Positions 1-61,528 of a stretch of DNA of 64,000 bases are shown here, piece after piece. The stretch comes from Elusimicrobiota bacterium (GTDB taxonomy: Bacteria > Elusimicrobiota > Elusimicrobia > F11), in contig JBGAON010000001.1 in NCBI GenBank assembly GCA_044221725.1, positions 335,480 to 399,479 of the forward strand, written 5' to 3'. The translations under genes were made by a program, and so were the position numbers. How positions within the stretch are numbered: the first letter of the stretch is position 1; each line of letters opens with the position of its first letter. The notes below the pieces were generated by a model, which saw only the letters and a list, made by a program, of their open reading frames with translations, was not told where the DNA came from and searched no databases.

Positions 1-1
1 C

Positions 2-42696: not shown

Positions 42697-42759
42697 ATCT
42701 TCGCTTTGCCCCGTTCCGTCGTTCGCCTTGGCGAGCGGCGGAACGGGACGGAGATTTGA

Positions 42760-44576: not shown

Positions 44577-45150
44577 GGCCGCGCTGTCTTTTCTATTGGT
44601 GACCCAAATGGCGGTAGCGTCGTGGGCGGCGGATTCTTCAGCGAGCGCGGCGGCATCTTCCGAAAGAGGAAACTACATTGGCGAAGCGGCCGAGGCGACC
44701 GTGGGGCGCGTGTTTGGTGTTGAGGGAGACGCCGCCGAAATAAATTATCACGTGTTTGAACTCACCTCTCATTCTCCGGCGAACGCGGCCATTCGCTCCG
44801 GCATCATCCCGGGTTGGGGACAGTATTTCAATAACGAGCGCGTGAAGGGTTCGGTTTTGTTCTTGGCCACATTGGGCGCGGTCGTCGCGAGCGTGCATCT
44901 TCACAATTCTGCCGAGAAATCTTACGACGATTACCAGGCGCTCGGACAGAAAGACAGTTCGTTGTACGATGATTACGAACGGGCGTACACCGGTTCCATC
45001 GTTCTTGGAAGCGCCGCTGCCGTTTTGTGGTTGGTTGGAATTTGGGACGCGCACCACAATGCGTATCATCCGCTCTATTCGAAAAATGTCACGGTGGATG
45101 TGGCGTACGCGGACAACACCTCTCAAATTCGCGTAAAGAAAAGTTTCTAG
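44566..45150 (+). CDS. hypothetical secreted/membrane protein with IIPGWGQYF motif
   Basis: Signal peptide. Internal hydrophobic helix (SVLFLATLGAVVASV) and C-terminal hydrophobic segment. Confidence 0.45.
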   Translation: MNARAALSFLLVTQMAVASWAADSSASAAASSERGNYIGEAAEATVGRVFGVEGDAAEINYHVFELTSHSPANAAIRSGIIPGWGQYFNNERVKGSVLFLATLGAVVASVHLHNSAEKSYDDYQALGQKDSSLYDDYERAYTGSIVLGSAAAVLWLVGIWDAHHNAYHPLYSKNVTVDVAYADNTSQIRVKKSF

Positions 45151-45204
45151 AAAAATTTCTTGTGCGAGCGCACCTTGATTTAATATTTTGTGCGTGGAGA
45201 ACCT

Positions 45205-46104: not shown

Positions 46105-46145
46105 CCGGCGAAGAAAATTTTTTGATCGAATTAAAGCGCTTGAAT

Positions 46146-47423
46146 ATGAATGGACATCGGAGAACAACAGTTGATTTAAATTTTTGGGTGATGCCGAATG
46201 CGGGTATCGCCACGCGGCATATTTTAAAAAGCTTTATCGATGAGTTTGAGCAGCTTCATCCGGAAGTTCGCGTCAATCTCGTAATCCACCCATGGTCGCT
46301 GGCGTGGAATCGGGTCATGGATGTGGTGAAAGGACGCAACACGCGCAGTGTTCCCGACGTCATGCAAATTGGAACTACCTGGGTTACCACTCTTGGTTAT
46401 CTGGGAGCGCTCGAAGAAGTCCCCGACGTTCCGTTCGGGCCACGGGATCAACGCATTGCCACATCCATCGGAGATTCAAGTGCGTTTTGTATTCCGTGGT
46501 TTATCGACATTCGGGTGCTGTATTACCGAAAAGATATTTTTCAGGCGTTTCGAATTGACCCGGCACTTCTAAACGATTGGAAGGGGTTTGCGCGGGCGTG
46601 CGCGGAACTCAAAAAAAACCTTTCAAGCAAGTCCGGCAAATTCTCTCGGATCATTGCGCCCTTGGGGATTCCGGGGCAAAAGCCCGGCGTTTTGATGCAC
46701 GACTTGGCCCCGTGGGTGTGGGAAGCGGGTGGCGACTTTTGCGCCGATGATTTGCGCGACACGAATTTAAATCAGGCGACGCTCATCGACGGATGCAAAT
46801 TTTATTTTGACCTCATCGATCAAGGTTTTATGCCGGTGCCAAACAGCGCCTTGCCGGCCGGAAATTTTTTCACGGGACATTACGCCATGCAGTTTTCGGG
46901 CAGCTGGCCGATCGATTCTTATTTGAATCCGACGTGGACCTACGCTGATCCCGACGTTGCAGCAAACGCCGGAGTGATGCCACTTCCCGAAGGACCTCAG
47001 GGGCGATACACGTTTTTGGGCGGCAGCAATTTGGCGGTACCGTCCTCGGCTCGGCATCGTGAAATCGCCTGGGAATTTGTGAATTTTCTTGTCGACCCTG
47101 TCCGGATCGTCAAGCATGCTCGGGGCATTGGTGCGTTACCCGCACGGCTGTCCGGTATGGAAAACTTGTTTGAACGGTTCCCGGCGGCCAAAGAAGTGTT
47201 TTTTAGTTCGTTCGGTTACGCGCGGCGTTTGCCCCGACTTGTGGAGCTCGGATCCATCGAGCAGATTATCTACAAGATGGGCGGTCGTTTGCTGTCCGCC
47301 GTTCGCGAAGGCTCTTACAACCAGAAGCGACTCCAGCAAGAAATAAACACCGCGAACAATGAAATTCGCTCGTTGCTGTCGATACACCGGTATGGTACGC
47401 GAATTTCGCAGGTAACCGCATGA
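46146..47423 (+). CDS. family-1 solute-binding-protein homologue lacking an obvious signal peptide
   Basis: MalE/UgpB-like conserved N-lobe (NLVIHPWSLAWNRVMD...TWVTTLGYLGALEEV). No hydrophobic leader at either candidate start (46092 or 46146). Stop overlaps the downstream GGDEF gene start (ATGA). Confidence 0.55.
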   Translation: MNGHRRTTVDLNFWVMPNAGIATRHILKSFIDEFEQLHPEVRVNLVIHPWSLAWNRVMDVVKGRNTRSVPDVMQIGTTWVTTLGYLGALEEVPDVPFGPRDQRIATSIGDSSAFCIPWFIDIRVLYYRKDIFQAFRIDPALLNDWKGFARACAELKKNLSSKSGKFSRIIAPLGIPGQKPGVLMHDLAPWVWEAGGDFCADDLRDTNLNQATLIDGCKFYFDLIDQGFMPVPNSALPAGNFFTGHYAMQFSGSWPIDSYLNPTWTYADPDVAANAGVMPLPEGPQGRYTFLGGSNLAVPSSARHREIAWEFVNFLVDPVRIVKHARGIGALPARLSGMENLFERFPAAKEVFFSSFGYARRLPRLVELGSIEQIIYKMGGRLLSAVREGSYNQKRLQQEINTANNEIRSLLSIHRYGTRISQVTA

Positions 47424-48982
47424 GCCAATTTCGTGCCCTCTTGGTATACGAAGAATTGTTGCGCTGTTTTCAGAACCACATGACGGCCTCGCACTTGGGA
47501 ATGGAACAGGCCTTTGAGTCGGGTTTTGGCTATTTGGCTTCGCGTCTGCGCCTCGAGCATGTGAGTTTGTTTTGGTGGGACCCTCATCGGCACGCGTTTA
47601 CCATGCAATATATTTTGCAAGACGGCGCGCTCATGGAAGGCGAGGATGAGATCGTCGTTGATGAGACAAGCGCGCTGCGTCCGTTGATTCAAGAGCGACG
47701 TCCGGTCGTTGTTTCCGAAAAGAAACCGTGGGCTGCGTTTCTACCGCTACAAATTGGAACGGAATTGTTGGGGGCGGTTCGACTGCAGCGGGCGCATCCG
47801 TTACCGAAAGGAAAAGTTTTGCTTCCGCTTTCACCGCTTATTACTCCGCTCGGTTCCCGAGCGAACGGGAATGGCAAACACTCGACAAAAGATCGGCTCA
47901 TGCCGTTTCTCGAAGACCTTGGCGACATATTCTCGATCCGATTTCATCAGTTGATTCGTGATGAAAAACACAAAAAGAAGGCCCAGGTTCTTCAAGCCAG
48001 CTCCGAAGTTGCGACCGCTGTTTTTGAGCGGCCGCGCTTGCGCGATATGTTGGAAGCGGTTTCCCGCAGCATTGTGCGAAATCTCGGGTTTGATCGCGTG
48101 CGCGTGTTTCTTGTGGACGTTGAGCAAACAAAACTCGAAGGAATTCTCGGACTGCAAATTCCCGACATGCTATTGGACATGACGGGCGAAAGTTATCCGC
48201 TGAGACCCAACACGAATTCGTTGGTTGACATGGTTCTCTCAGCAAAAGGGGCGTCGCACGTTCATCTCGTGGGGGGCCGTGTGGTTTACGTGCCGCTGAT
48301 TGTGAATAGCCAAGTGATTGGTTGTTTGGCGGCCGATAACTTGCTCAGTCAGCAATTGATAGACGAGGAGCAAATGGAAGCGCTTCGCACACTTACCGGC
48401 CAGATAGGCATGGCCGTGTTGAACGCGCGACTCTTCGAAGACATTGAACAGCAAGCGATCACGGACGGATTAACAAAGCTTTATGTGCACCGGTACTTCC
48501 AGCAGCGTCTCAAGGAAGAGATTGATCGCGCGGATCGCTACTCGTACAACATTGCTTTGATCATGATGGATGTCGATCACTTCAAGGCGCTGAACGACAG
48601 CCATGGGCATTTGATGGGCGACAAGGCGCTCGAGTATTTGTCGCAAGTGATTCGAAGCAACATTCGCCGAATCGATTTGGCCGCTCGGTATGGCGGGGAC
48701 GAGGTGGTGCTCGTTCTGCCGGAAATCACCGAACAGGAAGCGCTGCTGATGGGGGAGCGTTTGCTAAACGCAGTAAAAAAGGGAGTTCTTATTTCGTCGG
48801 ATGGGGCGAAGGTGCAAATGTCGGTTAGCATGGGTGCGGCGCTTTATTCGACGGACGCCCGCAACGCCCGGGACCTCATTGATGCGGCGGACAAAGCCCT
48901 GTTTTGGTCGAAGAAAAATGGGCGCGGCAACATCTGTTTCTACCGAACGATCCCCGCGCCGACCGAAAAAACAACGGCTTAA
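47420..48982 (+). CDS. GAF-domain diguanylate cyclase (GGDEF)
   Basis: Two GAF-like regions, then the GGDEF domain (DGLTKLYVHRYF...ALIMMDVDHFKALNDSHGHLMGDKAL...RYGGDEVVLVLP), active-site variant GGDEV. No TM segment. Confidence 0.85.
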   Translation: MSQFRALLVYEELLRCFQNHMTASHLGMEQAFESGFGYLASRLRLEHVSLFWWDPHRHAFTMQYILQDGALMEGEDEIVVDETSALRPLIQERRPVVVSEKKPWAAFLPLQIGTELLGAVRLQRAHPLPKGKVLLPLSPLITPLGSRANGNGKHSTKDRLMPFLEDLGDIFSIRFHQLIRDEKHKKKAQVLQASSEVATAVFERPRLRDMLEAVSRSIVRNLGFDRVRVFLVDVEQTKLEGILGLQIPDMLLDMTGESYPLRPNTNSLVDMVLSAKGASHVHLVGGRVVYVPLIVNSQVIGCLAADNLLSQQLIDEEQMEALRTLTGQIGMAVLNARLFEDIEQQAITDGLTKLYVHRYFQQRLKEEIDRADRYSYNIALIMMDVDHFKALNDSHGHLMGDKALEYLSQVIRSNIRRIDLAARYGGDEVVLVLPEITEQEALLMGERLLNAVKKGVLISSDGAKVQMSVSMGAALYSTDARNARDLIDAADKALFWSKKNGRGNICFYRTIPAPTEKTTA

Positions 48983-50231: not shown

Positions 50232-51065
50232 ATGAAAAAGAAACTAGCAGTACTCGCGTTTGTCGCAACAGCGATCGGCGCATGGACGCCGTCGTGGGCG
50301 TTCCAGTTGGTTCAAATCGAAACAGTAACCGCGACGGCGGTGACAGGAGGAGCGAAGGTTGCGCGGTTTAACTTCGTTATTCGTGACGCTGCGAACGTAA
50401 ACGGCCCGAACCGTCCGAACCTCGGATGGTCCGGTGTTGATCCTCTGTCAACCCAATGGAAAATGTCAGATCAGGTTATCGTGATGGCTTCCACGGTTAC
50501 CGACGCTGCCGGTGGTATTCAGATCCACACCGACAACACGGCGGCCGATGCATCGCCGAAGTTTGTTGATCCGACCCCGGGCAACCTCATTAATCCAGAT
50601 TCGAACGCTGCCGGTTTGTTGCAGGGCACCTCGGGAGTAACGTCAACGGTTTTGCCGATGGCGTGGAGCATTAAGGACTCGTCGCGTACCGTTGAAAGTG
50701 GAACCGTCAATACCGGAATCGGCGCCGCCGATCCAAACAACGGCCCAATCACGGCGGTCTACAACACGAAGTATCAGTGGCTGTTCGTGACCGATAAATT
50801 CAACGTGCAAGGTATCGACTACAGCGGTGATGGGCTCGTAACGCCTGGTCCAAATTCTCCGGACGCCGCTCCGTTCGTGAATGGCGCCAAGTACATCACG
50901 ATGCGCAACTCGACCGGTATTCACTTCGGTCAAGCGGATGGTGAGTTTGCGTCGGTTCCTCAGGGACAAACGAACTATGTTTACTTCGAAGCCAACTTCT
51001 TGGGTTCGCAAGTGCAACAGACGTATCAAACAACGACTCTGCGTCTGGAAGCCTTCATCCAATAA
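50232..51065 (+). CDS. secreted protein sharing a C-terminal module with the 1325-aa surface protein
   Basis: Start at ATG 50232 with SD AAAGGAGAG. Signal peptide cleaved before AFQLVQIET. The region IQIHTDNTAADASPKFVDPTPGNLINPDSNAAGLL...MAWSIKDSS...YVYFEANF aligns to the last ~200 aa of 53165..57142. Confidence 0.6.
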   Translation: MKKKLAVLAFVATAIGAWTPSWAFQLVQIETVTATAVTGGAKVARFNFVIRDAANVNGPNRPNLGWSGVDPLSTQWKMSDQVIVMASTVTDAAGGIQIHTDNTAADASPKFVDPTPGNLINPDSNAAGLLQGTSGVTSTVLPMAWSIKDSSRTVESGTVNTGIGAADPNNGPITAVYNTKYQWLFVTDKFNVQGIDYSGDGLVTPGPNSPDAAPFVNGAKYITMRNSTGIHFGQADGEFASVPQGQTNYVYFEANFLGSQVQQTYQTTTLRLEAFIQ

Positions 51066-51068
51066 CGA

Positions 51069-51884
51069 TTGTTCGGAGTTTCGATCATGATTAAAACGCC
51101 AGAGTGGTGGAACCGAAAGGTTCCGCCACTCGGCGGTTTTTTCACGTTGCTTCTTTTGGCGGGTGCGCCCCCTGCGGCGCGCGCGTTCGAAATTGCGCCG
51201 TCTTACCAGTTGTTAAAGGCGCAGCCCGGGAAATCCGTGGACTCGCAATTAACATTAACGAACACCGACCAGGAAGAAATCAGCGTTGAACCAGAAGCCA
51301 AGGATTGGCAATCGCTCGAGGTGAACCGTGGGATCAAGGTGGCTGATTGGTTGTCTGTGGATAAGAAAATGTTTTTCTTGAAGCCCGGCCAATCGCGAAC
51401 CATTAAGTTCTCGGCGCGTGTGCCAAAAAATGCGCACGGCGAGCTTATGGGAATGCTTTCTTTTGCCACGAAAAAGGAATCGGCTCAATCCATCACGTTC
51501 AAACTGAGCTCAGCGGTTTATGTCGAAGTGGTTGGTACACAAAAGATCGACGCGCACGTGGACGCTATTACGATTCAATTGTCATCAAACACGCAGGTGG
51601 GATTGCTTGTGATCAATCGAGGGAACATCCATGTTCGTCCTCACTCCTACGTTCAGATTCTCAACGAAAAAAAGAGCCCGGTAGGCAACGTGGTCATTGC
51701 GCAGAATGAGCCTGTTTTCCCCGGAATACCAAAGCCAATTTTCGGAACCATTAGAAATTTTCGTTTGCCCGCGGGGACGTACACCGCACAGATTTCGATG
51801 CAAGACACGGACCACAACATGGAATTTCAGCCCGTGACAAAAAAGTTTTCGCTTTCGGAGAAAGGGGAGTTGACCGAAAAATAG
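51069..51884 (+). CDS. periplasmic hypothetical protein, possible PapD-like/Ig-fold chaperone-like
   Basis: N-terminal hydrophobic leader. Mature N-terminus AFEIAPSYQLL. Beta-strand-rich with LTLTNTDQEEISVEP and LKPGQSRTIKF, resembling pilus-chaperone N-domains. Weak. Confidence 0.3.
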   Translation: MFGVSIMIKTPEWWNRKVPPLGGFFTLLLLAGAPPAARAFEIAPSYQLLKAQPGKSVDSQLTLTNTDQEEISVEPEAKDWQSLEVNRGIKVADWLSVDKKMFFLKPGQSRTIKFSARVPKNAHGELMGMLSFATKKESAQSITFKLSSAVYVEVVGTQKIDAHVDAITIQLSSNTQVGLLVINRGNIHVRPHSYVQILNEKKSPVGNVVIAQNEPVFPGIPKPIFGTIRNFRLPAGTYTAQISMQDTDHNMEFQPVTKKFSLSEKGELTEK

Positions 51885-51890: not shown

Positions 51891-53165
51891 ATGAGAGACC
51901 GGAAACGTAAAAATAATTGGAGTGGCGGCTTCGCTCTGGTGCTTGGTTTGGCGCTGGCTGCTTTCTTGCGCCCTGTTTCTGCATTCCAGATTGTGCAGAC
52001 CTCCAATGTTACGTGCCGCGTGGTGATTGGCGGAGTTCCTCCGGGCAAATTGAAGTTCCAGCATAATCCTCTTCAAAAGGTTTCCCCGGTGGACGATATG
52101 ATCATTATCATGGGTCAGGCTGGTTCCGAAGTTTTACCGACCCAGCCCACGTACGAAGAGTCGCTTAAAACGAATTCGGATTTTGGGCCAGCAGAAGATC
52201 GGAAGATCCGCGTCGTTGTTCAATACCGATTTGTTCCCTCGCTCGATAATCAAGACTCCGTGCCGTTCGTAACGTCGAGCAATATCGAGGGTCCGGATCC
52301 TACACCGTTTGCTTTTCAAATTGATCCGGCGTCCGTTCAACCCGGTTTCTTCCAATATCGGTTTGTCGCAACCGGATTGAATTTCGTGAACGGGCAGCTT
52401 GTCCCGATTTCACAAACAACCGGAGAATTGTTTACGGTTGGTGTGCAGGCCAACGCAAGCCAGGTTTTCGGCCCGGCGGGCGGCACGTTTATTCTTGCGA
52501 ACGGAAACCAAGCAGTCGGCCAAACATCGTTGGCAATTCCTTCCGGTGTGTTTCGGCAGCCAACAACGGTTTCAATCGATGAGATTCCCTCGAATAGCCC
52601 CAGTGTTCCTGCTGGACTTAACAATCCAATCAGCGTGTTTCATCTTGATTCCGACGGGCCGGCACGCGGAATTTTCCAGTTATCGCTTGTGTATCCGGAC
52701 TTTGAATATCCGCGAGGTCGCGACGGGGTTGTTGATGGCACGAATATTCCGGTTCAAAACCTTTCAATCCAGTGGTGGGACGGGTTTGTGTGGCGCGGTG
52801 GCGGCGGGACAATCAACACAAAGACAAATACAATCTCGACGCGCATCAGCGCTTTGAGTTTCGTCGCAATAATGGCGGCGCCTGTGATGACGCCGGAGGA
52901 TCGGCGACCGCTGGAACGCGTGATCACACCGAATAGCGACGGCATTAACGATGTGCTCAATTTTGCGTTTGGTGATTTGGCCGAAGATGTAAAAGTGGAG
53001 ATTTTTGATGTCGGCGGTCACCGCGTGCGAACGCTTCATAGTTTGACAAACATGCAATGGGATGGTCGCGATGATGACGGCAAAGTGGTGGAAAGCGGTG
53101 TTTACATTTATCAATACGACGTCAACAGCAAACGCATCAGCGGCGTCGTCGCGGTGGCGAAATAA
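51891..53165 (+). CDS. secreted protein with T9SS type-B (gliding-motility-associated, CHU_C-like) C-terminal sorting domain
   Basis: Signal peptide cleaved before AFQIVQTSN. C-terminus ITPNSDGINDVLNF...VKVEIFDVGGHRVRTL...WDGRDDDGKVVESGVYIYQYDV matches the type-B CTD. Confidence 0.65.
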   Translation: MRDRKRKNNWSGGFALVLGLALAAFLRPVSAFQIVQTSNVTCRVVIGGVPPGKLKFQHNPLQKVSPVDDMIIIMGQAGSEVLPTQPTYEESLKTNSDFGPAEDRKIRVVVQYRFVPSLDNQDSVPFVTSSNIEGPDPTPFAFQIDPASVQPGFFQYRFVATGLNFVNGQLVPISQTTGELFTVGVQANASQVFGPAGGTFILANGNQAVGQTSLAIPSGVFRQPTTVSIDEIPSNSPSVPAGLNNPISVFHLDSDGPARGIFQLSLVYPDFEYPRGRDGVVDGTNIPVQNLSIQWWDGFVWRGGGGTINTKTNTISTRISALSFVAIMAAPVMTPEDRRPLERVITPNSDGINDVLNFAFGDLAEDVKVEIFDVGGHRVRTLHSLTNMQWDGRDDDGKVVESGVYIYQYDVNSKRISGVVAVAK

Positions 53166-56100
53166 TGGAAGCGAATAACTATTGTCGTCATTCCCGCGAA
53201 AGCGGGAATCTAGGTCTCAAGCAATTTTTTGAATTCAGGCTCAAAGCCTGGATTCCCGCTTTCGCGGGAATGACGTTATTGCTTTTGCCCGGACTGGTTC
53301 ATTCCGAAGCGACGAAGGAATATACGCGCGACGCCGGAATTTATAGCGCGAACCCGTTCAGTATCTTCACGTTCTCGTTTAGCTCGATCAACGTTGATTT
53401 TGATTCCACGTCGGACCCGAACCCGCCAGAGGGATTAAAAGTCGCGAGCACAACCGTCGCGACCCAATGGGGAGGATGGGGAATATTCAATACGACCGCG
53501 ATGGGCAACAACGTCGTTACCGATTTGAATTTTTCGGACTATGTGAACGGGCATTTGCGATTCTGGTTAAAAAGCCAAATTGCGCTTGATGTAAAGATCG
53601 AATATCAGCAGGGGTCGAATGCCGTGCAAGTTTCCAGCAGCGTGGCCAGCACAGGCAACGCGTGGAAAGAAATTGTAATTCCATTGCAGTCGGGTGGCTT
53701 TGGTCTAAACAACGGTCAGATGAACCGCATCCGTTCTCCATTTATTGTGGTGGCTCCGCAAACGACCGGCGTGCAAAAGCAATGGTTCATCGATCACGTG
53801 CGCTGGACAAAACCTGTCACGTCCATCGTTATGTATCCGCCGTCGACCACGGTTCAACAAGGTTTCCACCGCTTGTTTACCGCGGAAGGTCGCGATGCCG
53901 CGAACGAACGTGTCATTATTTACCCCACGTTCAGTGTTTCTCCGACGGTCGGAACATTTACTCCGGCTGACCCGACTCCGGTCACAGCGTCACGCTTGAA
54001 CGCGACCGGCGCGAGCGGCGTTGCAAACGCGGTTTTTTCACCGCTATCGGCGTCCTCCGTGGTCACCATTACCGGATCTCACATTAATGACGAGCTTGGG
54101 TTGCTTAGTGAAACAATCCCGTCGTCGTTGATCCTTAATACTGACAGCGAGTTGGATGTGTCCTCGGGCGGCGGCGGGACGGATCCGGTGTTATTGGATG
54201 AATCGAGCAGTGATGTACGGGAGGGCGTGCGCCGTTTTAAAACGACCATCAGCGCGCAGCCGGCGAATGGCTTTAGCGGGTGGTTTATTCAATGGAGTAC
54301 GAACGCCGCGAACACGGTGACACGCGACATGAGCAATTATTACGACGGATCGTTGCGGTTCTGGTTCAAAGGTCCGGCCGCTCTACAAAACGTACTCCAG
54401 ATTTCTGTTCGGTCCGGAAATACCGAAGCGGGCACCGAACTATCAAAAGTGAATCTCAAGAACTACGTGACGTTCGATGACACGTGGCGACCGGTTGTCA
54501 TTCCCATTTCCGATTTCACTGGTGCGCGGCCCAAAGCCGATTTGTCGCGCATGAAAATATTGTTCGGAGCTTTTGCGGTCGGTGCCGTTGGAAGCGTACA
54601 AACGTTCTATATCGATAATCTTCGCTGGGACACAAATATTCCCGGCGCGCTGGCATCGCTCACGGTGTCGCCAGCATCGGTGACGGTTCCGCTTTCAGCG
54701 AAACGCCAATTCGTCGCCAAAGGCTTCGACGCGAACGGCGTGTCCGTTGACATCTTCCCAACATGGACAATCACCGGTGGCATCGGTTCGGTAAACCCAT
54801 CGCAGGGGGCCATCACGCAATTGACCGCCGCCAGCTCCGCGCAATCGGGAACTCTCAAAGCCAGTCAAGGAGCGGTATCAGCGACCGCGTCGGTAAACGT
54901 GGCCGATGTTCAATGGGTGCAGTCGTTCAACGTGTATTCGGACAATGGGTCTGGCGGATTTGTTGGAGTTGCTAAGGGAACGAACAACGGCACCGTGATG
55001 AATTTGAGCGAGCAAAATTTGGGCGCGGGCGTGGCGCCCGAAGGAAAATTTGTGCGCCAATCGAACTACACACTCGTTAACAATCCGAATCTTCAAGACG
55101 CGTTCGCGATTTGGTTCACCAACGCGGACGCGGGCACCGGCTCGCGCTTCATGCATTACTTTGATACGGGCTATCTTTATTTTTGGGTACGCACGACTCA
55201 GGACCTACAAATCTCGATTCGCTCCGCCAACATAACAGCGGGGAACGAGCGTTCGAAATTTCGATTGAGTGAGCTTGGTGTTCCGCTCGACAACAATTGG
55301 CAGAAAGTGGTGATCGCGCTTGCCGATTTCAAGAACCGCGAACCGCTTTTGGATTTTGACCAGATTCAAACGTATTTCGCTATCGGCGCCGTGTCGTCGC
55401 AGATTGGGCCTGTTACGAACCAAACGTTTGACGTCGATGATGTGAAATGGCTCACGAACAATCCGGGCCAGCCCGACGACAACAAGATTTACATTGGTCT
55501 CAAAGAGAAACAGGCCGCGGGGGGGCTTGTGCGGTCGTTCGATACGTTGCTCGATGCGTACACCTACGATCAGGCGCTTGCCGCTATGAATTACACGTAC
55601 CGAAAGGACGTGGCGTTATCCAAAAAAGTTTTTGACGTTTATAAATATGTCCATGATAATTACGGCGGTACCTTCAGCGGTTTTCACGAGGATTACAACA
55701 TCAATTCGGCGGTGGGCGGGTACACGGTGCTGAATAGCAGTCGCGTCGCCGGGCCAAACGCTTGGATTCTTCTCGCGATGATTCATTACCGGAATGTAAC
55801 GGGTTCCACCGCGTACGACACGGTGATTAACGACGTGGCGGCGTGGTTGCGCGGATTGCAGGGGGCTGACGGTGCTGTGCAGTTTGGGCGTGTAAATTCG
55901 ACATTGATCACTCTTAAATCCACCGAACACAATTTCGATGTGGTGGCCGCGTTTCGCGCGTACGCAAAAATGAGTGGCAACAGTGCGTACAACAGTTACG
56001 CGGACGCCGCGCGCAATTGGCTTCAGACACAAATGTACGTTCCCGCCCAGCAACGTTTTAACGTGGGCACGTACGCGAACGGAACCACAAACACGGATCG

Positions 56101-57142
56101 TGCGCTCGACGCTTATTCGTGGGCCCCTCTCGCCCTTTCCTCCTTCACGAACGTGTTGACGACCGCCGAGACCGATTTCAAGAACACAAAGGTGTGTGAT
56201 TTGACGGGACTCAGTGTCACGGGATTTGATTTTTCGGGTCCACCCAACTTTGGCCCCGACTTGGACGCGGTGTGGTTGGAGGGAACAGGCCAAATGGCGC
56301 TTGCCTATTACCTTACCGACAATCTCGCGAAAGGCGATTTTTACCTGCAAGAGCTCGATAAAGCGATCGTGAACACGTCCGCCAACGGCCAGGGCATGGC
56401 GTACGCGACGAACAACGGCACCGCCTACGGTTTTAATATGAATTCGCTGAATCCAGCCATAAGTTCAATGGCGTGGTATCTGTTTGCAAAGCAGAAATTC
56501 AATCCGTTCAAGCCTTATCCGATTTATGAGTTAAAAATCATGGACACGGCGTCCGGGACCGAACGTTCGTCGGTTGGCTTTACGGTTTCGGTTCCCGCGG
56601 CATGGGTGCGAGCGGATCAATACATCAAGCTCGATGTGCAACCGAATTCGGTCGATCCGTGGGGCTTGCAAATTTTGACGGATAACACGCAGCCAACCGT
56701 GGTTCCTCGTTTTGTTGATCCCACGCCGGGAACAACGTCCAATTCGGACTCGAATCCAGCGGGACTCCTTTTGGAATTGACCGGTCAAACAACAACGCCG
56801 TACCAAATCAACATGGCGTGGAGCGTCAAGGATACGAGCGCAACCGCCACCATGCCAATCGCAACCGATCCAAATTCCGGCGCGCCAAACTCCTTTCAGT
56901 GGATTTTTATGAAAGACCGCGCGACTCCAGACATTCCTTCAATGAACACGGTCGCGTTTGCGAACGGGCAAGATGATGTGATTGTTCGAAAAGCCGTGAG
57001 CGGAAGTCATACGTCCCAGGGACCTGCCGGATACACCGCTTCCGTTTCGCCGGACTACTTATTTCTAGAAGCAAATTTTAATTCCGCTGCGGCCCAGGTC
57101 CGCTACTTAGCGCATATCACGTTCGAATTTTTCCTGCAATGA
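53165..57142 (+). CDS. 1325-aa secreted multidomain surface protein (3 CBM-like beta-sandwich modules, 2 Big_2 Ig-like domains, alpha/alpha-toroid-like domain, C-terminal shared module)
   Basis: ATG overlaps the upstream stop (TAATG), but the first 35 codons are the translation of the palindromic element (SRESGN / IPAFAGMT). A more plausible start is ATG 53270. Repeated ...LRFWLKS / LRFWFKG / LYFWVRT modules. Big_2 segments (TVSPASVTVPLSAKRQFVAKGFDANG). Central GPNAWILLAMIHY...TG module. Last ~200 aa paralogous to 50232..51065. Confidence 0.6.
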   Translation: MEANNYCRHSRESGNLGLKQFFEFRLKAWIPAFAGMTLLLLPGLVHSEATKEYTRDAGIYSANPFSIFTFSFSSINVDFDSTSDPNPPEGLKVASTTVATQWGGWGIFNTTAMGNNVVTDLNFSDYVNGHLRFWLKSQIALDVKIEYQQGSNAVQVSSSVASTGNAWKEIVIPLQSGGFGLNNGQMNRIRSPFIVVAPQTTGVQKQWFIDHVRWTKPVTSIVMYPPSTTVQQGFHRLFTAEGRDAANERVIIYPTFSVSPTVGTFTPADPTPVTASRLNATGASGVANAVFSPLSASSVVTITGSHINDELGLLSETIPSSLILNTDSELDVSSGGGGTDPVLLDESSSDVREGVRRFKTTISAQPANGFSGWFIQWSTNAANTVTRDMSNYYDGSLRFWFKGPAALQNVLQISVRSGNTEAGTELSKVNLKNYVTFDDTWRPVVIPISDFTGARPKADLSRMKILFGAFAVGAVGSVQTFYIDNLRWDTNIPGALASLTVSPASVTVPLSAKRQFVAKGFDANGVSVDIFPTWTITGGIGSVNPSQGAITQLTAASSAQSGTLKASQGAVSATASVNVADVQWVQSFNVYSDNGSGGFVGVAKGTNNGTVMNLSEQNLGAGVAPEGKFVRQSNYTLVNNPNLQDAFAIWFTNADAGTGSRFMHYFDTGYLYFWVRTTQDLQISIRSANITAGNERSKFRLSELGVPLDNNWQKVVIALADFKNREPLLDFDQIQTYFAIGAVSSQIGPVTNQTFDVDDVKWLTNNPGQPDDNKIYIGLKEKQAAGGLVRSFDTLLDAYTYDQALAAMNYTYRKDVALSKKVFDVYKYVHDNYGGTFSGFHEDYNINSAVGGYTVLNSSRVAGPNAWILLAMIHYRNVTGSTAYDTVINDVAAWLRGLQGADGAVQFGRVNSTLITLKSTEHNFDVVAAFRAYAKMSGNSAYNSYADAARNWLQTQMYVPAQQRFNVGTYANGTTNTDRALDAYSWAPLALSSFTNVLTTAETDFKNTKVCDLTGLSVTGFDFSGPPNFGPDLDAVWLEGTGQMALAYYLTDNLAKGDFYLQELDKAIVNTSANGQGMAYATNNGTAYGFNMNSLNPAISSMAWYLFAKQKFNPFKPYPIYELKIMDTASGTERSSVGFTVSVPAAWVRADQYIKLDVQPNSVDPWGLQILTDNTQPTVVPRFVDPTPGTTSNSDSNPAGLLLELTGQTTTPYQINMAWSVKDTSATATMPIATDPNSGAPNSFQWIFMKDRATPDIPSMNTVAFANGQDDVIVRKAVSGSHTSQGPAGYTASVSPDYLFLEANFNSAAAQVRYLAHITFEFFLQ
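53187..53274. repeat. MITE-like palindromic element: perfect 24-bp terminal inverted repeats flanking 40 bp
   Basis: GTCATTCCCGCGAAAGCGGGAATC (53187-53210) and its exact reverse complement GATTCCCGCTTTCGCGGGAATGAC (53251-53274). Each arm is itself a hairpin (ATTCCCGC-GAAA-GCGGGAAT). The central 40 bp contains a further hairpin AGGCT-CAA-AGCCT. Confidence 0.75.
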
Positions 57143-59319
57143 TTCTCGATCCGTCGCCGATTTCTGCGTCCGATCGAAAGTTAAAACATCCTTCCGCAGA
57201 AAAGAAATCGGGGCGGCGCGAAAAGGTCGGATTTGCGTTGCTGATCCTGTTGGCGTTTGTCGGGTCTTTCGGCATCTGGAGATGGGAGCCGAAATGGGCC
57301 AAGCCATCCGTCCCGCCCGTTGAAAAGCCGCTGGTACGGCTTCCCGTGCCAGACACCATCGATGAGCGCCACCGCGAACACATTAAAAACGTTTTGTCGG
57401 TGATCGAATCCAACATCAATCCCGAAACCTACCTCGCCTACAGTTTCAGTGGAGACAAAAGACTCGAGTATTGGAGCGTTGTCTACGACAATTGCATTCG
57501 CGCGATCGTTCACTTGCAAACCGGACAGCCGGAGCTCGCCAAGAAAATAATCGACTACTTCATCGATAACACCGCGATCCAAAAAATCGGTTGGGTTCGG
57601 AAGAATCACCGGTTGGTGGCTCGGACGGGGTGGGTCATAAATATTGTCGATGCGTCGGAATCGCGTGCGGGCGGTCGTGGCATCGAACATATTGCGCATA
57701 CCGGCCCCAACGCTTACCTCGGAATTGCAGCGCTCCATATTTTTGAAGTGACGGGGGAGCAAAAATATTTGCGGTTCGCCAAGAAACAGTGGGAATTATT
57801 AAAGGATTTGCAGAACGAAGATCCGCAAGATCCGAATTTCGGCGGAATTCGTATGGGGCCCATGGGCAATCCCGCCAATCCACGCGAGCAGCGCTTGGAT
57901 TTTAAACCATCGAATCCGTCGTTCTATGAGTTTTATAACGGTGAGCATGCGGCGGATTTTAAAGCGTTTTCCGAACTCCTTTCGGTTTACGATCTCGAAA
58001 ATCAAGAACGCTATGAAAAAGCAGTGGATCTCATTGAGACGTGGGATCACCGAATTTACGATGCCGAAAAACATTTGTTTTATATCGGTACCACCGAAAA
58101 GAAATTTTTTGATCCAAACATCGGGCAATGGATAAGCGTCGGGGTAATTCCGATGTATCCACTCGATACAAGCTCGTTAAAGATTTCCGCCTATGGAGTT
58201 GATGGATTGGAACAGTTTGAGAAGAACGCCGCGCAGAAAATTCGCAAAGCGATCGATGACAACTTCAAGGTGACCGTGAGGATCCCCGATGGCAGCGGAG
58301 GTTTCAAGTCCGTTTCCGGTTATGACTTTGTTTGCAATTCGGACCGAGCGCGACTGATTCGCTTCGTTGAAATGGGACACTACGGCGACCGAAAAATAAA
58401 CGAAGGCATCGGACGCGAACCGCTGCTCAGTGACGAATGGTCGAATTGGGTAGCGCTCGCCGATCTTCGACTCACCGCTGACTTTGAAAAGAAAAACGAC
58501 AACCGAAAGGCCACGATGTATTCAAACGCTTACTATGAAAACGCGCTCGTGAGCTCGATGAAAACGTCGATGTCGGTCGATGGGGGGCTTGCATATCCCT
58601 ACGCGCAACCGCTGCCCGATTCGTTAAACAAGCCGGTCGGTTTCGGTTGGAACACACATCACGAGCCGTACGCGATCATTGGCGGTGCCGCGCGAATTCT
58701 GGGCATTTTGCGATTTGATCCGTTTCTCGCGCGTGGCGGGGATCGATCAACGACGGTCAATGTCGAGGTGAAGAAACTGGGCAGGCCCATCGGAGAAATG
58801 CGTGACAAGGCCGTACTTTACACCGAGGCCGAGCTGTATTTGCGCGATGCGTGGCGGGATTTGCGCGTGGCACAAATCAATGGACCGAAAGCGGAGTTGT
58901 ACTGGAGCTGTGCTCGAGCCACGTGTGAGAGGATGCTTCGTGAACACCAAGATTGGGTTGATGTGGCGATGTCGCAGAACAACAGTTTAAGACTCTCGCG
59001 GCAGCCATTTCCTCTCACGGGGGTTGCGAATTTGACGGAACGAGATTTGGAGCCGGTTTATCGAAAATATTGGGCGCTTTATCATATCGGCACCGCGGAA
59101 TTTATTTTGGTCGTTGCCAATGCGGGGCTGCGCGATATTTACCGCGAGCGCGGCGACGTTGGGCGTGCCGACGCATTGAATCTAAAAGCCATTGAAGCGG
59201 CAAAACGAATTAAAAAAGATTTTTGTTTTGCGCAGTCTTACGACGAGGGCGGTTGGTTATGGCAACCCGCGCAAGCCATTAACGAATACGTTGATCTCGC
59301 GGGGCCGATAAATCACTAA
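57139..59319 (+). CDS. membrane-anchored protein with alpha/alpha-toroid-like module
   Basis: ATGA overlap with the upstream stop. Single N-terminal TM (VGFALLILLAFVGSFGIW). Module GPNAYLGIAALHIFEVTGEQKYLRFAKKQWELL is paralogous to the central domain of 53165..57142. Confidence 0.5.
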   Translation: MILDPSPISASDRKLKHPSAEKKSGRREKVGFALLILLAFVGSFGIWRWEPKWAKPSVPPVEKPLVRLPVPDTIDERHREHIKNVLSVIESNINPETYLAYSFSGDKRLEYWSVVYDNCIRAIVHLQTGQPELAKKIIDYFIDNTAIQKIGWVRKNHRLVARTGWVINIVDASESRAGGRGIEHIAHTGPNAYLGIAALHIFEVTGEQKYLRFAKKQWELLKDLQNEDPQDPNFGGIRMGPMGNPANPREQRLDFKPSNPSFYEFYNGEHAADFKAFSELLSVYDLENQERYEKAVDLIETWDHRIYDAEKHLFYIGTTEKKFFDPNIGQWISVGVIPMYPLDTSSLKISAYGVDGLEQFEKNAAQKIRKAIDDNFKVTVRIPDGSGGFKSVSGYDFVCNSDRARLIRFVEMGHYGDRKINEGIGREPLLSDEWSNWVALADLRLTADFEKKNDNRKATMYSNAYYENALVSSMKTSMSVDGGLAYPYAQPLPDSLNKPVGFGWNTHHEPYAIIGGAARILGILRFDPFLARGGDRSTTVNVEVKKLGRPIGEMRDKAVLYTEAELYLRDAWRDLRVAQINGPKAELYWSCARATCERMLREHQDWVDVAMSQNNSLRLSRQPFPLTGVANLTERDLEPVYRKYWALYHIGTAEFILVVANAGLRDIYRERGDVGRADALNLKAIEAAKRIKKDFCFAQSYDEGGWLWQPAQAINEYVDLAGPINH

Positions 59320-61391
59320 TGCCCCGCTACTTCGGGTGGGGGAGCGGACGGAATTAATTTGTTCGCACGGCAGAACCAATAGACAAACAGAAAATCCGTC
59401 GATGGATAAATCTTCGCGCCGTCGCCTTTCAGGCGTCGCGGATTGCGTTGCCATAGGAAGGAATCTTTCGGTCGATGGGACACCGGAAGCGGTTCGCGAG
59501 AAAAGCCGCTCCATTCCCCGCCACCGATCGTGTCCGCCAGTTCACGATCGTGCGCATCCCAAAATTCTTTTCCATATCCGTGACGGTTTTCCGGGTAAAG
59601 TGAAAGATCGCGCAGCACCTGTTCCATGTCGCCCTGCTCCTTTTTGGACGCAAGGCAATTGAACGCCGTAACCATCGGATTGTCTTCGCCGCGGTACGAA
59701 CTCCATTCCCGTTTCAGTAGGGAACGGTAACTCGCTTGAACCGTCGGATTTTTTTCCAACGAAATAAGATTCATGAGAGCCAGTGTTCCTAGGTAACCCC
59801 GGCGTTCCGAATTCGCGCGTGGATTGCCAGCGGTTAATTGCGTAAGTTCATCTTCAATCCCGTACCAATCGAGTGCCGTTTTCAGAAGTGCATCTTGCGA
59901 ATAAAGATTCTCCCGATAGTAATCGCGAAATGTCGATTTCTCCGTGATCTCGGCCGCGGTTTTCACAATGTGAAGCGAAATTAACGCGTTGGACGCCAAT
60001 ATTTTTAGATCGGAGAATTCTCGTAGGCGTTGACCATCCTCTTTTTTCGGAAACCGTTTTAAAAGTGTCGTCAGCATGTCCGCCAATTTGATTCCGGGAT
60101 ACTCTTTGTTTGTGTAGCGTTTGGGGAACAAGTCCTGACGATATTGTTCGCGCAGCACATCACGAACGCGCTCACCCAGCAGAAACACTCCGTTCATCGT
60201 AGGCAATGTCAATTCGAAACACCGTTGCTCGTCTTCCGCTTCAAGCGCCTTAATCACTTCTTTCATTCCGGGCCATAGTTCGCCGAACGGTAGGTAGCGT
60301 CGCGACATTTTGAGATTCTTGACGAACTGGTGAACGTCTTTTTTGTCGTCCAATAGTTTGCGAATGCCCGAGCGAATTTCCGACTCTGAAAGGTACGGCG
60401 TGAGACTGAACAATGTTTTGCTGCCGCTTTTTACGGCCAGATCATCACGCAAAAACTTCGTCGCGATACGGTCCACGTCATCTCTCATTTGCTTTTTTAG
60501 CGCGGGGTTCGTGATCCGCGGATAGGCGACGGACATCGCGAGAAAGAACGAAGTGTAAACGTCCTTGCTTGGAATTTTTGAAAACGGGTTTCCATCGACG
60601 TCGACGTAACGTGTGATGATGGGTTCGTCAAATGTTCCTTTGATCGCGTTGTGCAAGGTCGCGAGCCCATTTTCGAGCGCCTGATAGGTAAGCGCATCGC
60701 CGGTGGCCGCGTACTTCCATGCGAGCGACGTGACATAGAATCCGGTGTAGGTGGTGGCGTCGCCTGTCTCATCGGGCGCTCCGTTCAACTCCCGGGAAAC
60801 CACGAAGCCGTTTTCCAGATGATCATGCGCCAGCTTGTCGGCAAGGCGCGTTGCCTTCTGTTCAATCGCTGTTAGGGATACCTCAGAAAACCGCTCAAAT
60901 TGGATCGAACTGATTTCACCGTTCGCGAGCCCAATCCAGTACACACGCGGTTCGATTGTGTGTCGCTCCCGGCTTTCCATCGAAAACTCCAACCAGCGCG
61001 GCTCGTAGCGGTTGGGCCCCGAAAAATCTGCAATCTGGAGCTCGCGCTGCGCGATGAGTTTGTCGGTGGTTGTATCCCAGAGCTCAATTCGGAAAAGCCC
61101 GTAAGATGAAAACAATAATCCTTTCTTCGGATAATGACCGCGTCGCATTTCGAACGTGGCGCGATAGAGTCCGGGTTCCAGGAACAGCGGATCCTTAAGT
61201 CCCGAGATGGCGTAACCCGGACGATCCCGCTTGTAGTCCAACTCCCATCCTCGAAATCCCGCTTTTCCGACGGAGTGGAGGGCTTCTGTTTTTACAACGA
61301 TTTCTCGCACCATCGTGCGAGGAGGAGCGGTCACTTCGGCGGTCGCCGCGGCGGCCAGCAAAATTCCGACGAGAAAAGATGCTTTTTTCAT
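59316..61391 (-). CDS. secreted hypothetical protein, possible third alpha/alpha-toroid-like paralogue
   Basis: Start set at ATG 61391 (MKKASFLVGILLAAAATA signal peptide) with SD AAGGGA. Weak similarity of YTGFYVTSLAWKYAATGDALTY to the GPNA...TG module. Convergent with and overlapping the 3' end of the upstream gene. Confidence 0.4.
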   Translation of the reverse strand: MKKASFLVGILLAAAATAEVTAPPRTMVREIVVKTEALHSVGKAGFRGWELDYKRDRPGYAISGLKDPLFLEPGLYRATFEMRRGHYPKKGLLFSSYGLFRIELWDTTTDKLIAQRELQIADFSGPNRYEPRWLEFSMESRERHTIEPRVYWIGLANGEISSIQFERFSEVSLTAIEQKATRLADKLAHDHLENGFVVSRELNGAPDETGDATTYTGFYVTSLAWKYAATGDALTYQALENGLATLHNAIKGTFDEPIITRYVDVDGNPFSKIPSKDVYTSFFLAMSVAYPRITNPALKKQMRDDVDRIATKFLRDDLAVKSGSKTLFSLTPYLSESEIRSGIRKLLDDKKDVHQFVKNLKMSRRYLPFGELWPGMKEVIKALEAEDEQRCFELTLPTMNGVFLLGERVRDVLREQYRQDLFPKRYTNKEYPGIKLADMLTTLLKRFPKKEDGQRLREFSDLKILASNALISLHIVKTAAEITEKSTFRDYYRENLYSQDALLKTALDWYGIEDELTQLTAGNPRANSERRGYLGTLALMNLISLEKNPTVQASYRSLLKREWSSYRGEDNPMVTAFNCLASKKEQGDMEQVLRDLSLYPENRHGYGKEFWDAHDRELADTIGGGEWSGFSREPLPVSHRPKDSFLWQRNPRRLKGDGAKIYPSTDFLFVYWFCRANKLIPSAPPPEVAGH

Positions 61392-61528
61392 TTCCCTTGA
61401 GGGTATCCCCAAGAGTCTTCGTTTTCGAGTCGGTTGCCCGTCGAAAACGAGCCGAAAAGACTAAGTGTTGCTTTGCTCGGTCTTTGATAGCATTATCGCG
61501 GTCCAAAAAAACAAGATAGGGAGGATGT

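Follow-up and report, generated by a model that had tools for sequence, protein, structure and literature searches.

In chaperone-usher systems, the major pilin consists of an N-terminal extension and an incomplete Ig-like domain, and the tip adhesin of an N-terminal binding domain followed by a C-terminal pilin domain that lacks this extension. Such systems also have a terminator or anchor subunit, and their operons code for a two-domain Ig-like protein as periplasmic partner. The CTDs of T9SS, beta-sandwich domains at the C-terminus, act as signals to which PorV-type barrels bind. The TasA/TapA biofilm fibres of Bacillus subtilis belong to the camelysin/Peptidase_M73 superfamily and can be grouped with the archaeal AbpA bundling pili and the CanA cannulae. 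In TasA fibres, the beta-sandwich subunit inserts its mature N-terminal strand into the next subunit. TapA is linked to cell attachment; its body is complete and unrelated, but its N-terminal strand is similar and is donated to TasA (PMC10151520, PMC9674648). The WxL/Csc systems of Lactobacillales and Bacillales pair a domain-only protein with a large protein in which the same domain lies C-terminally, behind adhesive or carbohydrate-related domains, and they include a DUF916-type partner and a separate anchor (PMC9772566, PMC10599100, PMC1534035). For these, AF2 predicts that a strand of WxLIP completes the WxL beta-sandwich (PMC10599100).

In a 64-kb stretch of Elusimicrobiota DNA, the whole of which is referred to here as the window, we identified a gene cassette with features that recall each of these systems (Table 1). 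To our knowledge, almost nothing has been described of the Elusimicrobiota cell surface, and this phylum is not known to possess T9SS.

Table 1. Features of the cassette and its upstream neighbours (window coordinates; residue ranges refer to the encoded protein).
Feature	Residues	Window position	Strand	Evidence or remark
Solute-binding protein gene		46092-47423		Directly before the GAF-GGDEF gene
GAF-GGDEF diguanylate cyclase		47420-48982	+	GGDEF E 4e-42; conserved upstream neighbour
PorV/PorQ/UPF0164-kind outer-membrane beta-barrel, 329 aa		49182-50171	+	Pfam UPF0164
p277, stand-alone subunit		50232-51065	+	BLASTP, family alignment, AF2
p277 signal peptide	1-23			SWA/F
p277 conserved N-terminal strand	24-43	50301-50360	+
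p277 mature N-terminal 17-mer, proposed donor strand		50301-50351	+	FQLVQIETVTATAVTGG
p277 module	46-277	50367-51062	+
p265, secreted, two Ig-like domains		51087-51884	+	WxLIP_PGBD sub-threshold; synteny
p424, strand without module		51891-53165	+	CHU_C, FlgD_ig; N-terminal match to p277
p424 mature N-terminus	32-48	51984-52034	+	FQIVQTSNVTCRVVIGG; follows signal peptide
p424 CHU_C / T9SS type-B-like C-terminal domain	343-412	52917-53126	+
p1325, proposed tip protein		53165-57142	+	CBM30; internal repeats; C-terminal module
p1325 signal peptide
p1325 CBM-like repeats (three)	50-220, 330-495, 585-770
p1325 Ig-like linkers (two)
p1325 alpha-helical domain	770-1115
p1325 C-terminal module, without N-terminal strand	1121-1325	56525-57139	+	BLASTP; AF2

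The first-pass annotation proposed that the C-terminal part of p1325 is paralogous to the whole mature p277. Our analysis confirmed the paralogy: BLASTP with composition-based statistics returned one collinear alignment between p277 residues 46-277 and p1325 residues 1121-1325 (84 bits, E=4e-22; identities 79/237, 33%, and positives 112/237). The module limits first proposed (56530-57142) were right within two codons of the aligned segment (56525-57139), and the four peptide strings cited for the match were all found in the two translations. Because the similarity spans non-repetitive motifs (GGIQIxTDNT, FVDPTPG, NPAGLL, MAWSxKD, FQWxF, EANF and xEaFxQ), the significant score is not confined to low-complexity Thr/Ser/Pro stretches. 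Both p277 and p1325 are T/S/G/A-rich, as are many secreted bacterial proteins, and their similarity could in principle reflect chance or the composition of Thr/Ser/Pro-rich surface proteins, with no common function. However, the E value was reached despite compositional adjustment, the profile of the stand-alone family retrieves independent large proteins at E<=1e-38, and AF2 gives confident, similar, beta-rich models for both module copies; we therefore consider this explanation refuted and its probability negligible. Within the window, p277 and p1325 are the only two ORFs that bear the module. The claim that the whole mature p277 is matched needed correction, as the first ~22 mature residues (F24-F45), a short segment more conserved than any other in the family, are without a p1325 counterpart. 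It is this missing segment that makes the comparison informative.

Judged by sequence comparison, p277 and the tail of p1325 share a genuine domain that is undescribed so far. We found no Pfam or NCBIfam match for p277, and Pfam annotation of 62 family members, one by one, returned scattered noise only, with WxL absent. A search of PDB sequences was empty for the family profile at both E<=1 and E<=10 and gave no match for p1325. An exhaustive profile search assigned 628 cluster representatives to the family. Membership was taken from this search and from locus look-ups, which replaced word-indexed protein searches that proved insensitive (the module retrieved two proteins and missed p1325 itself; p265 retrieved itself only). 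All named sources are Elusimicrobiota MAGs except one labelled Clostridia. The module spans ~205-230 aa and features an invariant W in the motif AWS[IV]K and a conserved FQWLF; it ends 0-3 residues from the C-terminus in 200/200 complete copies, with a conserved terminal motif. The family comprises stand-alone proteins of ~230-290 aa, in which the mature N-terminus is a conserved strand (F-Q-S-V-x-x-x-T-V-T-A...GG), proteins of ~360-470 aa composed of one CBM-like domain and the module, and large proteins of ~1040-1390 aa with the module at the C-terminus. A sample of 205 members contained 139 stand-alone proteins with the N-terminal segment, 34 mid-size fusions and 14 large fusions; in the same sample, an HMM of the N-terminal strand matched 92/139 stand-alone proteins at >=10 bits and 0/48 fused members. 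The arrangement seen in p1325 recurs in other genomes, since the stand-alone family profile matched ~1300-aa proteins from other metagenomes with E ~1e-58 to 1e-38, in every case over the C-terminal ~205-240 residues.

The boundary between signal peptide and mature p277 (A23/F24) is nearly invariant, and the N-terminal segment is conserved among 56 stand-alone members. The AF2 model of p277 has a pLDDT of 90.2, but for the highly conserved residues 17-40 the value is only 50-75 and no secondary structure was modelled. The combination of conservation and low pLDDT would be expected if the segment binds in trans. A role of the strand as a general export signal was rejected because the tip proteins do not carry it.

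No module is present in p424, and its body between the N-terminal strand and the CHU_C domain is unrelated to p277. BLASTP nevertheless aligned the p424 and p277 N-termini with 12/29 identities (E 7e-4, part of the signal peptide included), and the two strands from the window share 9/17 identities. The strand homology is also exemplified by locus L011 (FTSVSSQTVTAEVTMGG in comparison with FTSISSQTVTAVAVMGG). Over 12 genomes, strand identity between p424 and p277 was 8.6/17 within a genome and 6.6/17 between genomes (permutation p~1e-5), a within-genome likeness for which gene conversion could also be a source. When the strand HMM was run over 1949 ORFs, the best matches other than p277 proteins were 7/13 p424 orthologs, each directly after the signal peptide; the p424 of the window was missed at rank 548 of these ORFs, and its assignment draws only on the pairwise BLASTP match and the 9/17 identities. 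By these alignments, the mature N-terminus of p424 is homologous to the p277 strand and co-varies with it.

The C-terminal part of p424 matched Pfam CHU_C at 42.9 bits (cut-off 27) and FlgD_ig at 27.6 bits; the NCBIfam model TIGR04131 scored 33.7 bits, just under its cut-off of 35, and the p424 tail aligned weakly to the C-termini of PorU and PorZ. CHU_C was also present in p424 orthologs, in some of them below threshold. The barrel encoded at the start of the cassette matched Pfam UPF0164 at 26.1 bits (cut-off 21.4) and NCBIfam PorV_fam with E=1.3e-9 and 38 bits, below the cut-off of 90; the barrels of the related cassettes are likewise PorV-like and of 313-333 aa. At locus L008, the cassette barrel is fused to an OmpA peptidoglycan-binding domain, and the locus also encodes an independent pair of an S8 protease with a CTD and a PorV barrel.

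The WxLIP architecture comprises DUF916, DUF3324 and a C-terminal TM helix; p265 has two Ig-like domains, is secreted and lacks such a helix. WxLIP_PGBD was matched by 11/13 p265 orthologs (best E 3e-5, no score reaching the gathering cut-off of 27.3 bits) and WxLIP_HBD by 1/13. In a profile search of the PDB, the sole relevant sequence match was EfmWxLIP1 (E~0.6), aligned to the region that WxLIP_PGBD also covers. Together these matches weakly indicate that p265 is distantly WxLIP/DUF916-like. In p1325, Pfam CBM30 scored 35.8 bits over residues 372-487, and the internal CBM-like repeats match each other at E 1e-12 and 2e-20.

The AF2 model of p1325 residues 1096-1325 reached a pLDDT of 91.5 and a pTM of 0.87. 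Foldseek returned no match at E<=1e-3 for either this model or that of p277; the pilin matches of both lay at E 0.01-1 and TM 0.2-0.42. Weak matches of the p277 model were the TasA fibre, which ranked at the top, CfaB, CanA and FimA/I. Those of the p1325 module were CfaE, CfaB, FimI, CanA, FimH, CsuE and FimF/G/A, and further FocH, Csu, SafA, FaeG and uromodulin; CanA was among the top matches of both models. Given the lack of a match at E<=1e-3 and TM-scores of 0.2-0.4, the resemblance of the predicted module fold to donor-strand pilins is suggestive only.

The order of the cassette, with the PorV/UPF0164-like barrel followed by p277, p265, p424 and then optional tip proteins, was found in at least 13 loci, over which the four-gene core is syntenic and the tip genes vary. 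All complete cassettes contain an ortholog of the barrel, and p265 is syntenic in all cassettes. Orthologs of p1325 follow p424 at six loci (L001, L002, L010, L012, L013 and L015), and the p277 gene occurs in one or two copies per locus.

Based on this combination of features, we hypothesised that Elusimicrobiota build a donor-strand-complemented surface fibre or complex of their own, in which the module acts as acceptor domain. The CBM/enzyme tip would be p1325, the shaft p277 and the anchor, docked on the barrel, p424; we would give this reading an even chance of being correct. The partner of the module would be the strand of ~17-20 residues that forms the mature N-terminus of some of the proteins. 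Because p277 has both strand and module, it would both donate and accept, forming the shaft or a repeating adaptor. Its counterpart p1325, with the module and no strand, would accept only and thus take the distal position; there it and the shorter proteins of other genomes, composed of a CBM and the module, would display carbohydrate-binding and enzyme-like domains. The strand-only p424 would close off the last module and, via CHU_C, connect the assembly with the co-encoded PorV/PorQ-like outer-membrane barrel, the barrel serving as membrane anchor by binding this C-terminal domain. A chaperone-like p265 might stabilise the modules and keep them assembly-competent in the periplasm. The sequence comparisons directly establish the module homology, its three architectures and strictly C-terminal position, the co-varying N-terminal strand common to p277 and p424, the CTD and the synteny; from these patterns we infer that the strand inserts, that the subunits polymerise with a defined polarity, that the CTD binds the barrel, that p265 acts as chaperone and that the assembly is surface-exposed.

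The first-pass annotation had compared p277 and p1325 with stalk subunit and tip adhesin. This reading is favoured by the fused proteins with a C-terminal module and no N-terminal strand, and by the strand-only p424; the weak fold matches of the two models, mostly to donor-strand pilins and the pilin domains of tip adhesins, point the same way but are not statistically significant, and the polymerisation that it entails is a deduction. Its alternative suggestion, a direct docking of the module to the neighbouring outer-membrane barrel, appears less likely: the CHU_C domain of p424 looks built for barrel docking, and the second pair of CTD protein and PorV barrel at L008 points to the CTD instead. 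Against a fibre stands the lack, in the cassette, of an usher, secretin or T9SS translocon for passage through the outer membrane. A barrel of the 14-strand class is too small for the passage of folded subunits. We identified no usher (PF00577, ~800 aa) in the cassette, in its flanking genes in the window or in the Pfam annotation of related loci, and no T9SS core genes (SprA/Sov, PorK/L/M/N, PorU) in the 64-kb window. With one or two p277 genes per locus, a complex of fixed stoichiometry fits equally well as a polymer.

The combinatorial logic of the cassette is that of chaperone-usher systems (Fim, Pap, CFA/I, Csu). All fused members (48/48) match the layout of tip adhesins, with a C-terminal module and no N-terminal strand, as architecture only, and their N-terminal parts are CBM-like. 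The cassette differs in lacking an usher and any PapD-family signature; PapD_N/PapD_C (PF00345/PF02753) matched 0/13 p265 orthologs at E<=1, the likeness being restricted to the layout of two Ig-like domains. Moreover, the barrel is small and PorV-like, the module is ~205-230 aa in comparison with ~130-150 aa for pilins, and TM-scores are <=0.42. The p424 protein may be likened to TapA, by analogy, as an unrelated body sharing the N-terminal strand of the subunit, and no usher is present in either system; TasA was also the best fold match of p277. In contrast to TasA, the host is diderm, the tips bear the module C-terminally and the anchor would consist of a T9SS-type CTD and an outer-membrane barrel. 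We detected no sequence relationship with Peptidase_M73 (PF12389; 1/62 module members, E 0.0047, below cut-off) and, unlike in the TasA operon with its SipW-type signal peptidase, no signal-peptidase match among the cassette genes in Pfam or NCBIfam. In strand function p424 may resemble TapA or PapH, and in anchoring PorZ-PorQ: as in the T9SS pairs PorZ-PorQ and PorU-PorV, and in type-B CTD proteins with PorP/SprF-like barrels, a protein with a retained C-terminal beta-sandwich CTD is encoded next to a PorV/PorQ-like barrel.

An alternative is that the cassette represents a diderm counterpart of the Gram-positive WxL/Csc complex, in which the module would act as an envelope-binding platform of fixed stoichiometry, with one small and one large module protein, nothing polymerising and a WxLIP-like p265 inserting a strand that completes and stabilises the module. 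The cluster logic is indeed that of published WxL loci, from the domain-only small protein and the large protein with the domain at its C-terminus to the DUF916-type protein with two Ig-like domains and the separate anchor (PMC9772566, PMC10599100); CBM-like domains are found on the tip proteins, in line with proposals for Csc clusters, and the WxLIP_PGBD and EfmWxLIP1 matches of p265 agree with it. However, those p265 matches are all below the gathering score and the WxLIP-type TM helix is missing, Pfam WxL (PF13731) matched 0/62 family members even at E<=1, and the module does not contain the published pair of Trp-x-Leu motifs (PMC9772566). This alternative also leaves the co-varying N-terminal strand of p277 and p424, absent from the fused proteins, unaccounted for; no WxL equivalent of such a strand on a third protein has been described. 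The ligand of WxL is peptidoglycan on the monoderm surface, to which a diderm does not offer the same access; for the diderm host, we therefore propose an outer-membrane barrel as the point of anchoring in place of peptidoglycan or sortase attachment. We consider this counterpart improbable, although it is the most probable of the alternatives.

Less probable still is that the module serves in C-terminal sorting or anchoring and docks on, or is exported via, the PorV-like barrel, with p277 as small cargo or plug and the N-terminal strand as a processing or targeting signal. The strictly terminal placement of the module and the conserved motif at its end (200/200 complete members), the barrel gene that always adjoins and the C-terminal beta-sandwich nature of T9SS CTDs would all suit such a role. 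Nevertheless, the module resembles no CTD family, is roughly threefold larger than known CTDs and has its fold matches among pilins rather than CTDs, and a bona fide CHU_C is present on p424 in the same cassette; a targeting strand would also be needed by the tip proteins on the same route, which lack it. An assignment of the module as a T9SS CTD was rejected on the grounds of sequence and size.

Our literature survey on donor strands in Elusimicrobia and on WxL strand complementation found no description of a system of this kind. That Elusimicrobiota possess an unrecognised diderm fibre, with usherless N-terminal donor-strand exchange, a chaperone related to WxLIP/DUF916 and fastening by a CTD to a PorV-like barrel, is a tentative proposal that we regard as more doubtful than the donor-strand arrangement as such. 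If correct, it would join in one hybrid three systems held to be unrelated, namely chaperone-usher or TasA-type fibres, WxL complexes and T9SS attachment. If the donor-strand model holds, the four core genes would make up a complete, compact cassette that builds a modular adhesive structure anchored in the outer membrane. The proposed anchor, a CTD bound to a PorV-like barrel, would be a mode of outer-membrane anchoring not described for pili, and the weak relationship between p265 and WxLIP hints at an evolutionary link to the WxL/Csc complexes of Firmicutes. The module would constitute a new domain family of 628 sequence clusters without annotation, and the presence of strand only, module only or both would predict binding partners, which provides a testable assembly rule. 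Interchangeable CBM/enzyme tips would serve polysaccharide binding. One Elusimicrobiota lineage has been reported to bind cellulose strongly while encoding no cellulases (PMC7031533), and the CBM-tipped variants are a candidate mechanism that could explain attachment of Elusimicrobiota to polysaccharide particles, the cellulose report being no more than context here.

Upstream of the barrel, the GAF-GGDEF gene is syntenic at eight loci (L001, L003, L004, L007, L010, L011, L012 and L015). This diguanylate cyclase is likely a regulator of the cassette, and its conserved position suggests control by c-di-GMP.

The first-pass annotation had proposed that the C-terminal module of the 1325-aa cassette protein (p1325) is paralogous to the whole mature 277-aa protein (p277). 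All the peptide strings it quoted were found in the two translations, and BLASTP with composition-based statistics returned a single collinear alignment (84 bits, E=4e-22; 237 columns, 33% identity, 47% positives), which confirms that the similarity is real; chance similarity is excluded. Rather than being confined to low-complexity stretches, the matches span the non-repetitive motifs GGIQIxTDNT, FVDPTPG, NPAGLL, MAWSxKD, FQWxF and EANF, and the terminal motif xEaFxQ is also common to both proteins. The paralogy holds for p277 residues 46-277, which pair with p1325 residues 1121-1325, but not for the N-terminal ~22 residues of the mature protein (from F24 of p277), to which nothing in p1325 corresponds.

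The module represents a previously undescribed domain family. p277 had no Pfam or NCBIfam matches, and a 62-member module profile matched no PDB sequence even at E<=10. A word-indexed protein search identified 67 p277 relatives with lengths of 196-384 aa, only two of them outside 213-290 aa; none is annotated, and the sole organism name among them is that of an Elusimicrobiota MAG. A word-indexed search with the C-terminal module did not return p1325 itself. An exhaustive profile search over 1.84 billion cluster representatives identified 628 proteins at E<=1e-3 (212 of these at E<=1e-30), and a scan of GTDB species genomes located nine module loci, eight in Elusimicrobiota/Endomicrobiales MAGs and one in a genome binned as 'Clostridia'. 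Residues N102, L129, W145, P168 and D188 are invariant in the family alignment and A23/F24 is nearly so, placing Phe as mature residue 1 after an AxA-type signal-peptide site. The module and the bodies of p265 and p424, cassette proteins of 265 and 424 aa, are all unannotated.

Architecture classes were assigned among 205 family members. Stand-alone proteins (139/205; ~230-290 aa) match the profile from its start. Mid-size fused proteins (34/205; ~290-730 aa, mostly 360-470) consist of a signal peptide, one CBM-like domain homologous to the p1325 repeats, and the module. The large fused class (14/205) spans ~1040-1390 aa; p1325 comprises a signal peptide, three CBM-like repeats, the second of which exceeds the Pfam CBM30 cut-off, two Ig-like linkers, an alpha-helical domain (770-1115) and the module. 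All 200 complete copies place the end of the module within 0-3 residues of the protein C-terminus. An HMM of the mature N-termini of stand-alone members (the N-strand; consensus F-Q-S-V-x-x-x-T-V-T-A-x-x-x-x-G-G) scored >=10 bits in 92/139 stand-alone proteins vs 0/48 fused proteins scanned over their whole length.

p424 has nothing in common with the module, but its mature N-terminus FQIVQTSNVTCRVVIGG resembles that of p277, FQLVQIETVTATAVTGG (12/29 identities, cleavage region included; E 7e-4). The resemblance was found in 12 genomes, including the pairs FTSVSSQTVTAEVTMGG vs FTSISSQTVTAVAVMGG (L011), FTSQGISTVTAGTFVGG vs FTSTQKRSVTAGAFVGG (L015) and FISVSRATMTA vs FVSVSSTTLSG (L009). Strand identity is 8.6/17 within genomes vs 6.6/17 between genomes (permutation p~1e-5), an excess unexpected for merely diverged paralogous segments, which indicates either that both strands co-evolve with a shared partner or that gene conversion has occurred. 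When the p277-derived HMM was run on 1949 six-frame ORFs from the window and 16 related loci, the best matches after p277 orthologs were 7 of the 13 p424 orthologs (ranks 11-19), each directly behind the signal peptide; the window's own p424 was missed (rank 548), which we count as a weakness. The C-terminal end of p424 is a CHU_C/T9SS type-B-like domain (CTD; 42.9 bits, cut-off 27) that also matches FlgD_ig and aligns weakly with PorU and PorZ C-termini. A CHU_C-type domain was present in all p424 orthologs examined, in some sub-threshold. The mid-region (residues ~193-282) of two orthologs weakly matches ZU5 (E 4e-4 to 1.5e-3). As ZU5 domains can cleave themselves, this putative anchor protein might conceivably be processed.

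In at least 13 loci the cassette order is barrel, p277 (one or two copies), p265, an optional CBM+module protein, p424 and optional large module proteins, of which L011 has three. The barrel (313-333 aa) is PorV/UPF0164-like; that of the window exceeds the Pfam UPF0164 cut-off and matches NCBIfam PorV/PorQ at E 1.3e-9, under the family cut-off. The cassette barrel of L008 carries a fused OmpA peptidoglycan-binding domain, and nearby a separate S8 protease ending in CHU_C/Por_Secre_tail adjoins a barrel above the Pfam PorV cut-off; pairs of a CTD protein and a PorV-like barrel thus recur in the lineage. The 'Clostridia' label of the L008 MAG, set against its diderm-type locus, looks like a binning or labelling problem.

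Positions of the cassette genes and other features
Feature	Sequence	Position	Strand	Remark
1925-aa ORF	window	18301-24078	+	
REP-like hairpin, degenerate copy	window	35435-35454		
Six-gene block	window	39988-46104	+	654, 234, 383 (OmpA family), 222, 194 (DUF5683), 304 aa
Solute-binding protein and GAF-GGDEF diguanylate cyclase	window	46092-48982	+	directly upstream of barrel gene
p277	window	50232-51065	+	stand-alone module protein
p424	window	51891-53165		two genes downstream of p277
p1325	window	53165-57142	+	module at C-terminal end
REP-like hairpins	window	53190-53209; 53252-53271	+; -	region 53186-53275
p1325 residues 1121-1325	window	56525-57139		aligned with p277
726-aa protein	window	57139-59319	+	no family match
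698-aa protein	window	59316-61412	-	no family match
Second p277 paralog	L008	1554-2288	+	
S8 subtilase and PorV barrel pair	L008	7198-9392; 4831-6462	-; +	
p424 ortholog	L005	12842-14116		weak ZU5 match
p424 ortholog	L009	8730-10025		weak ZU5 match

The AF2 model of p277 (62-sequence alignment; pLDDT 90.2, pTM 0.83) is very confident in the body; over conserved residues 17-40 pLDDT is 50-75 and the chain has no secondary structure. The model of p1325 residues 1096-1325 (69-sequence alignment; pLDDT 91.5, pTM 0.87) shows six principal strands in the same succession. Neither had a Foldseek match in the PDB at E<=1e-3. The top non-viral matches of p277 were the TasA fibre (E 3.6e-3, prob 0.82), CfaB, CanA and FimA/I; the top 50 for the p1325 module were mostly CfaE, CfaB, FimI, CanA, FimH, CsuE, FimF/G/A, FocH, Csu, SafA and FaeG, together with uromodulin filaments (TM-scores of the matches 0.2-0.42). 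In these models, resemblance to pilins and donor-strand fibres is a recurring lead and not a fold assignment.

The simplest account of how strand and module combine is donor-strand complementation, to which we give an even chance; that strands insert, subunits polymerise, the CTD binds the barrel and the structure is surface-exposed are inferences. The module would be the acceptor and the N-strand the donor. p277, bearing both, would form the shaft, and module-only proteins behind binding or enzyme domains would form the tip, following the logic of FimH, CfaE and CsuE. p424, with strand and CTD, would be terminator and anchor, its CTD docking to the PorV/PorQ-like barrel in parallel to the PorZ-PorQ and PorU-PorV pairs of T9SS. 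Its role would resemble that of PapH and of TapA, whose N-terminus is donated to TasA (PMC10151520). p265 would serve as a periplasmic stabiliser. The module's strictly C-terminal placement and conserved terminal motif suggest, by analogy, recognition of its free C-terminus. Chaperone-usher chaperones recognise such a terminus. The second p277 paralog of L008 starts at the first module strand (ADITVTVVDRNG...), lacking the donor-like strand; as a stand-alone acceptor-only copy it would be a minimal cap under donor-strand complementation.

The main rival, which we consider rather unlikely, is a WxL-like complex of fixed stoichiometry whose module is completed by p265. WxL loci encode a small protein consisting of the WxL domain alone, a large one with WxL strictly C-terminal behind adhesive domains, and WxLIP, of which AF2 predicts one strand to close a gap in the WxL sandwich (PMC9772566, PMC10599100); this cluster logic is strikingly similar to that of the cassette. 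p265 has two beta-rich, Ig-like halves with invariant W74, W88, G179-N180, R184-P185 and P212-G213 among 13 orthologs, 11 of which match Pfam WxLIP_PGBD (DUF916; best E 3e-5, all under the gathering score), and its only meaningful PDB sequence match, EfmWxLIP1 (E~0.6), falls in that same region. None of these orthologs shows a PapD signal. p265 has no C-terminal TM helix, and 0/62 module proteins match Pfam WxL at E<=1. That the module itself docks on the barrel, as the first-pass annotation alternatively suggested, appears improbable; under donor-strand complementation this role would fall to the p424 CTD. Surface assemblies built by strand complementation, with a tip, a shaft and an anchor, are a known kind of system, whereas neither the present set of parts nor the CTD/PorV-like anchoring was previously known; the literature searched held no link between Elusimicrobia and donor-strand systems. 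That the cassette is a genuinely new pilus class is possible but doubtful.

The solute-binding and GAF-GGDEF genes upstream of the barrel are syntenic in most loci, suggesting that a ligand or c-di-GMP controls the surface structure. The six-gene block and the cassette are syntenic in L010, L011, L012 and L015, and most of the block lacks Pfam matches; its 234-aa protein weakly matches choice-of-anchor J. These genes may supply additional envelope machinery to the system, possibly its missing parts for export or assembly. The window holds no usher, secretin or T9SS core gene.

The 5' end of the p1325 ORF contains two exact, oppositely oriented copies of a 20-bp palindromic REP-like hairpin (ATTCCCGC-GAAA-GCGGGAAT), translated as ...SRESGNL...IPAFAGMT.... 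They occupy the place of the ordinary signal-peptide start of the L002 ortholog (MKSKLLALTFGVLATVALTQRASA/EATKEYTRD), which leaves the true start or the signal peptide of p1325 uncertain. Neither the 726-aa nor the 698-aa protein is kept beside the cassette in other loci. The former has an N-terminal TM segment, a faint GH47 signal and weak similarity to the p1325 alpha-helical domain (E 1e-3, 21% identity). The only recognisable part of the 1925-aa ORF is a D-2-hydroxyacid dehydrogenase domain (residues ~1077-1405), and its size and context are unusual for this family.
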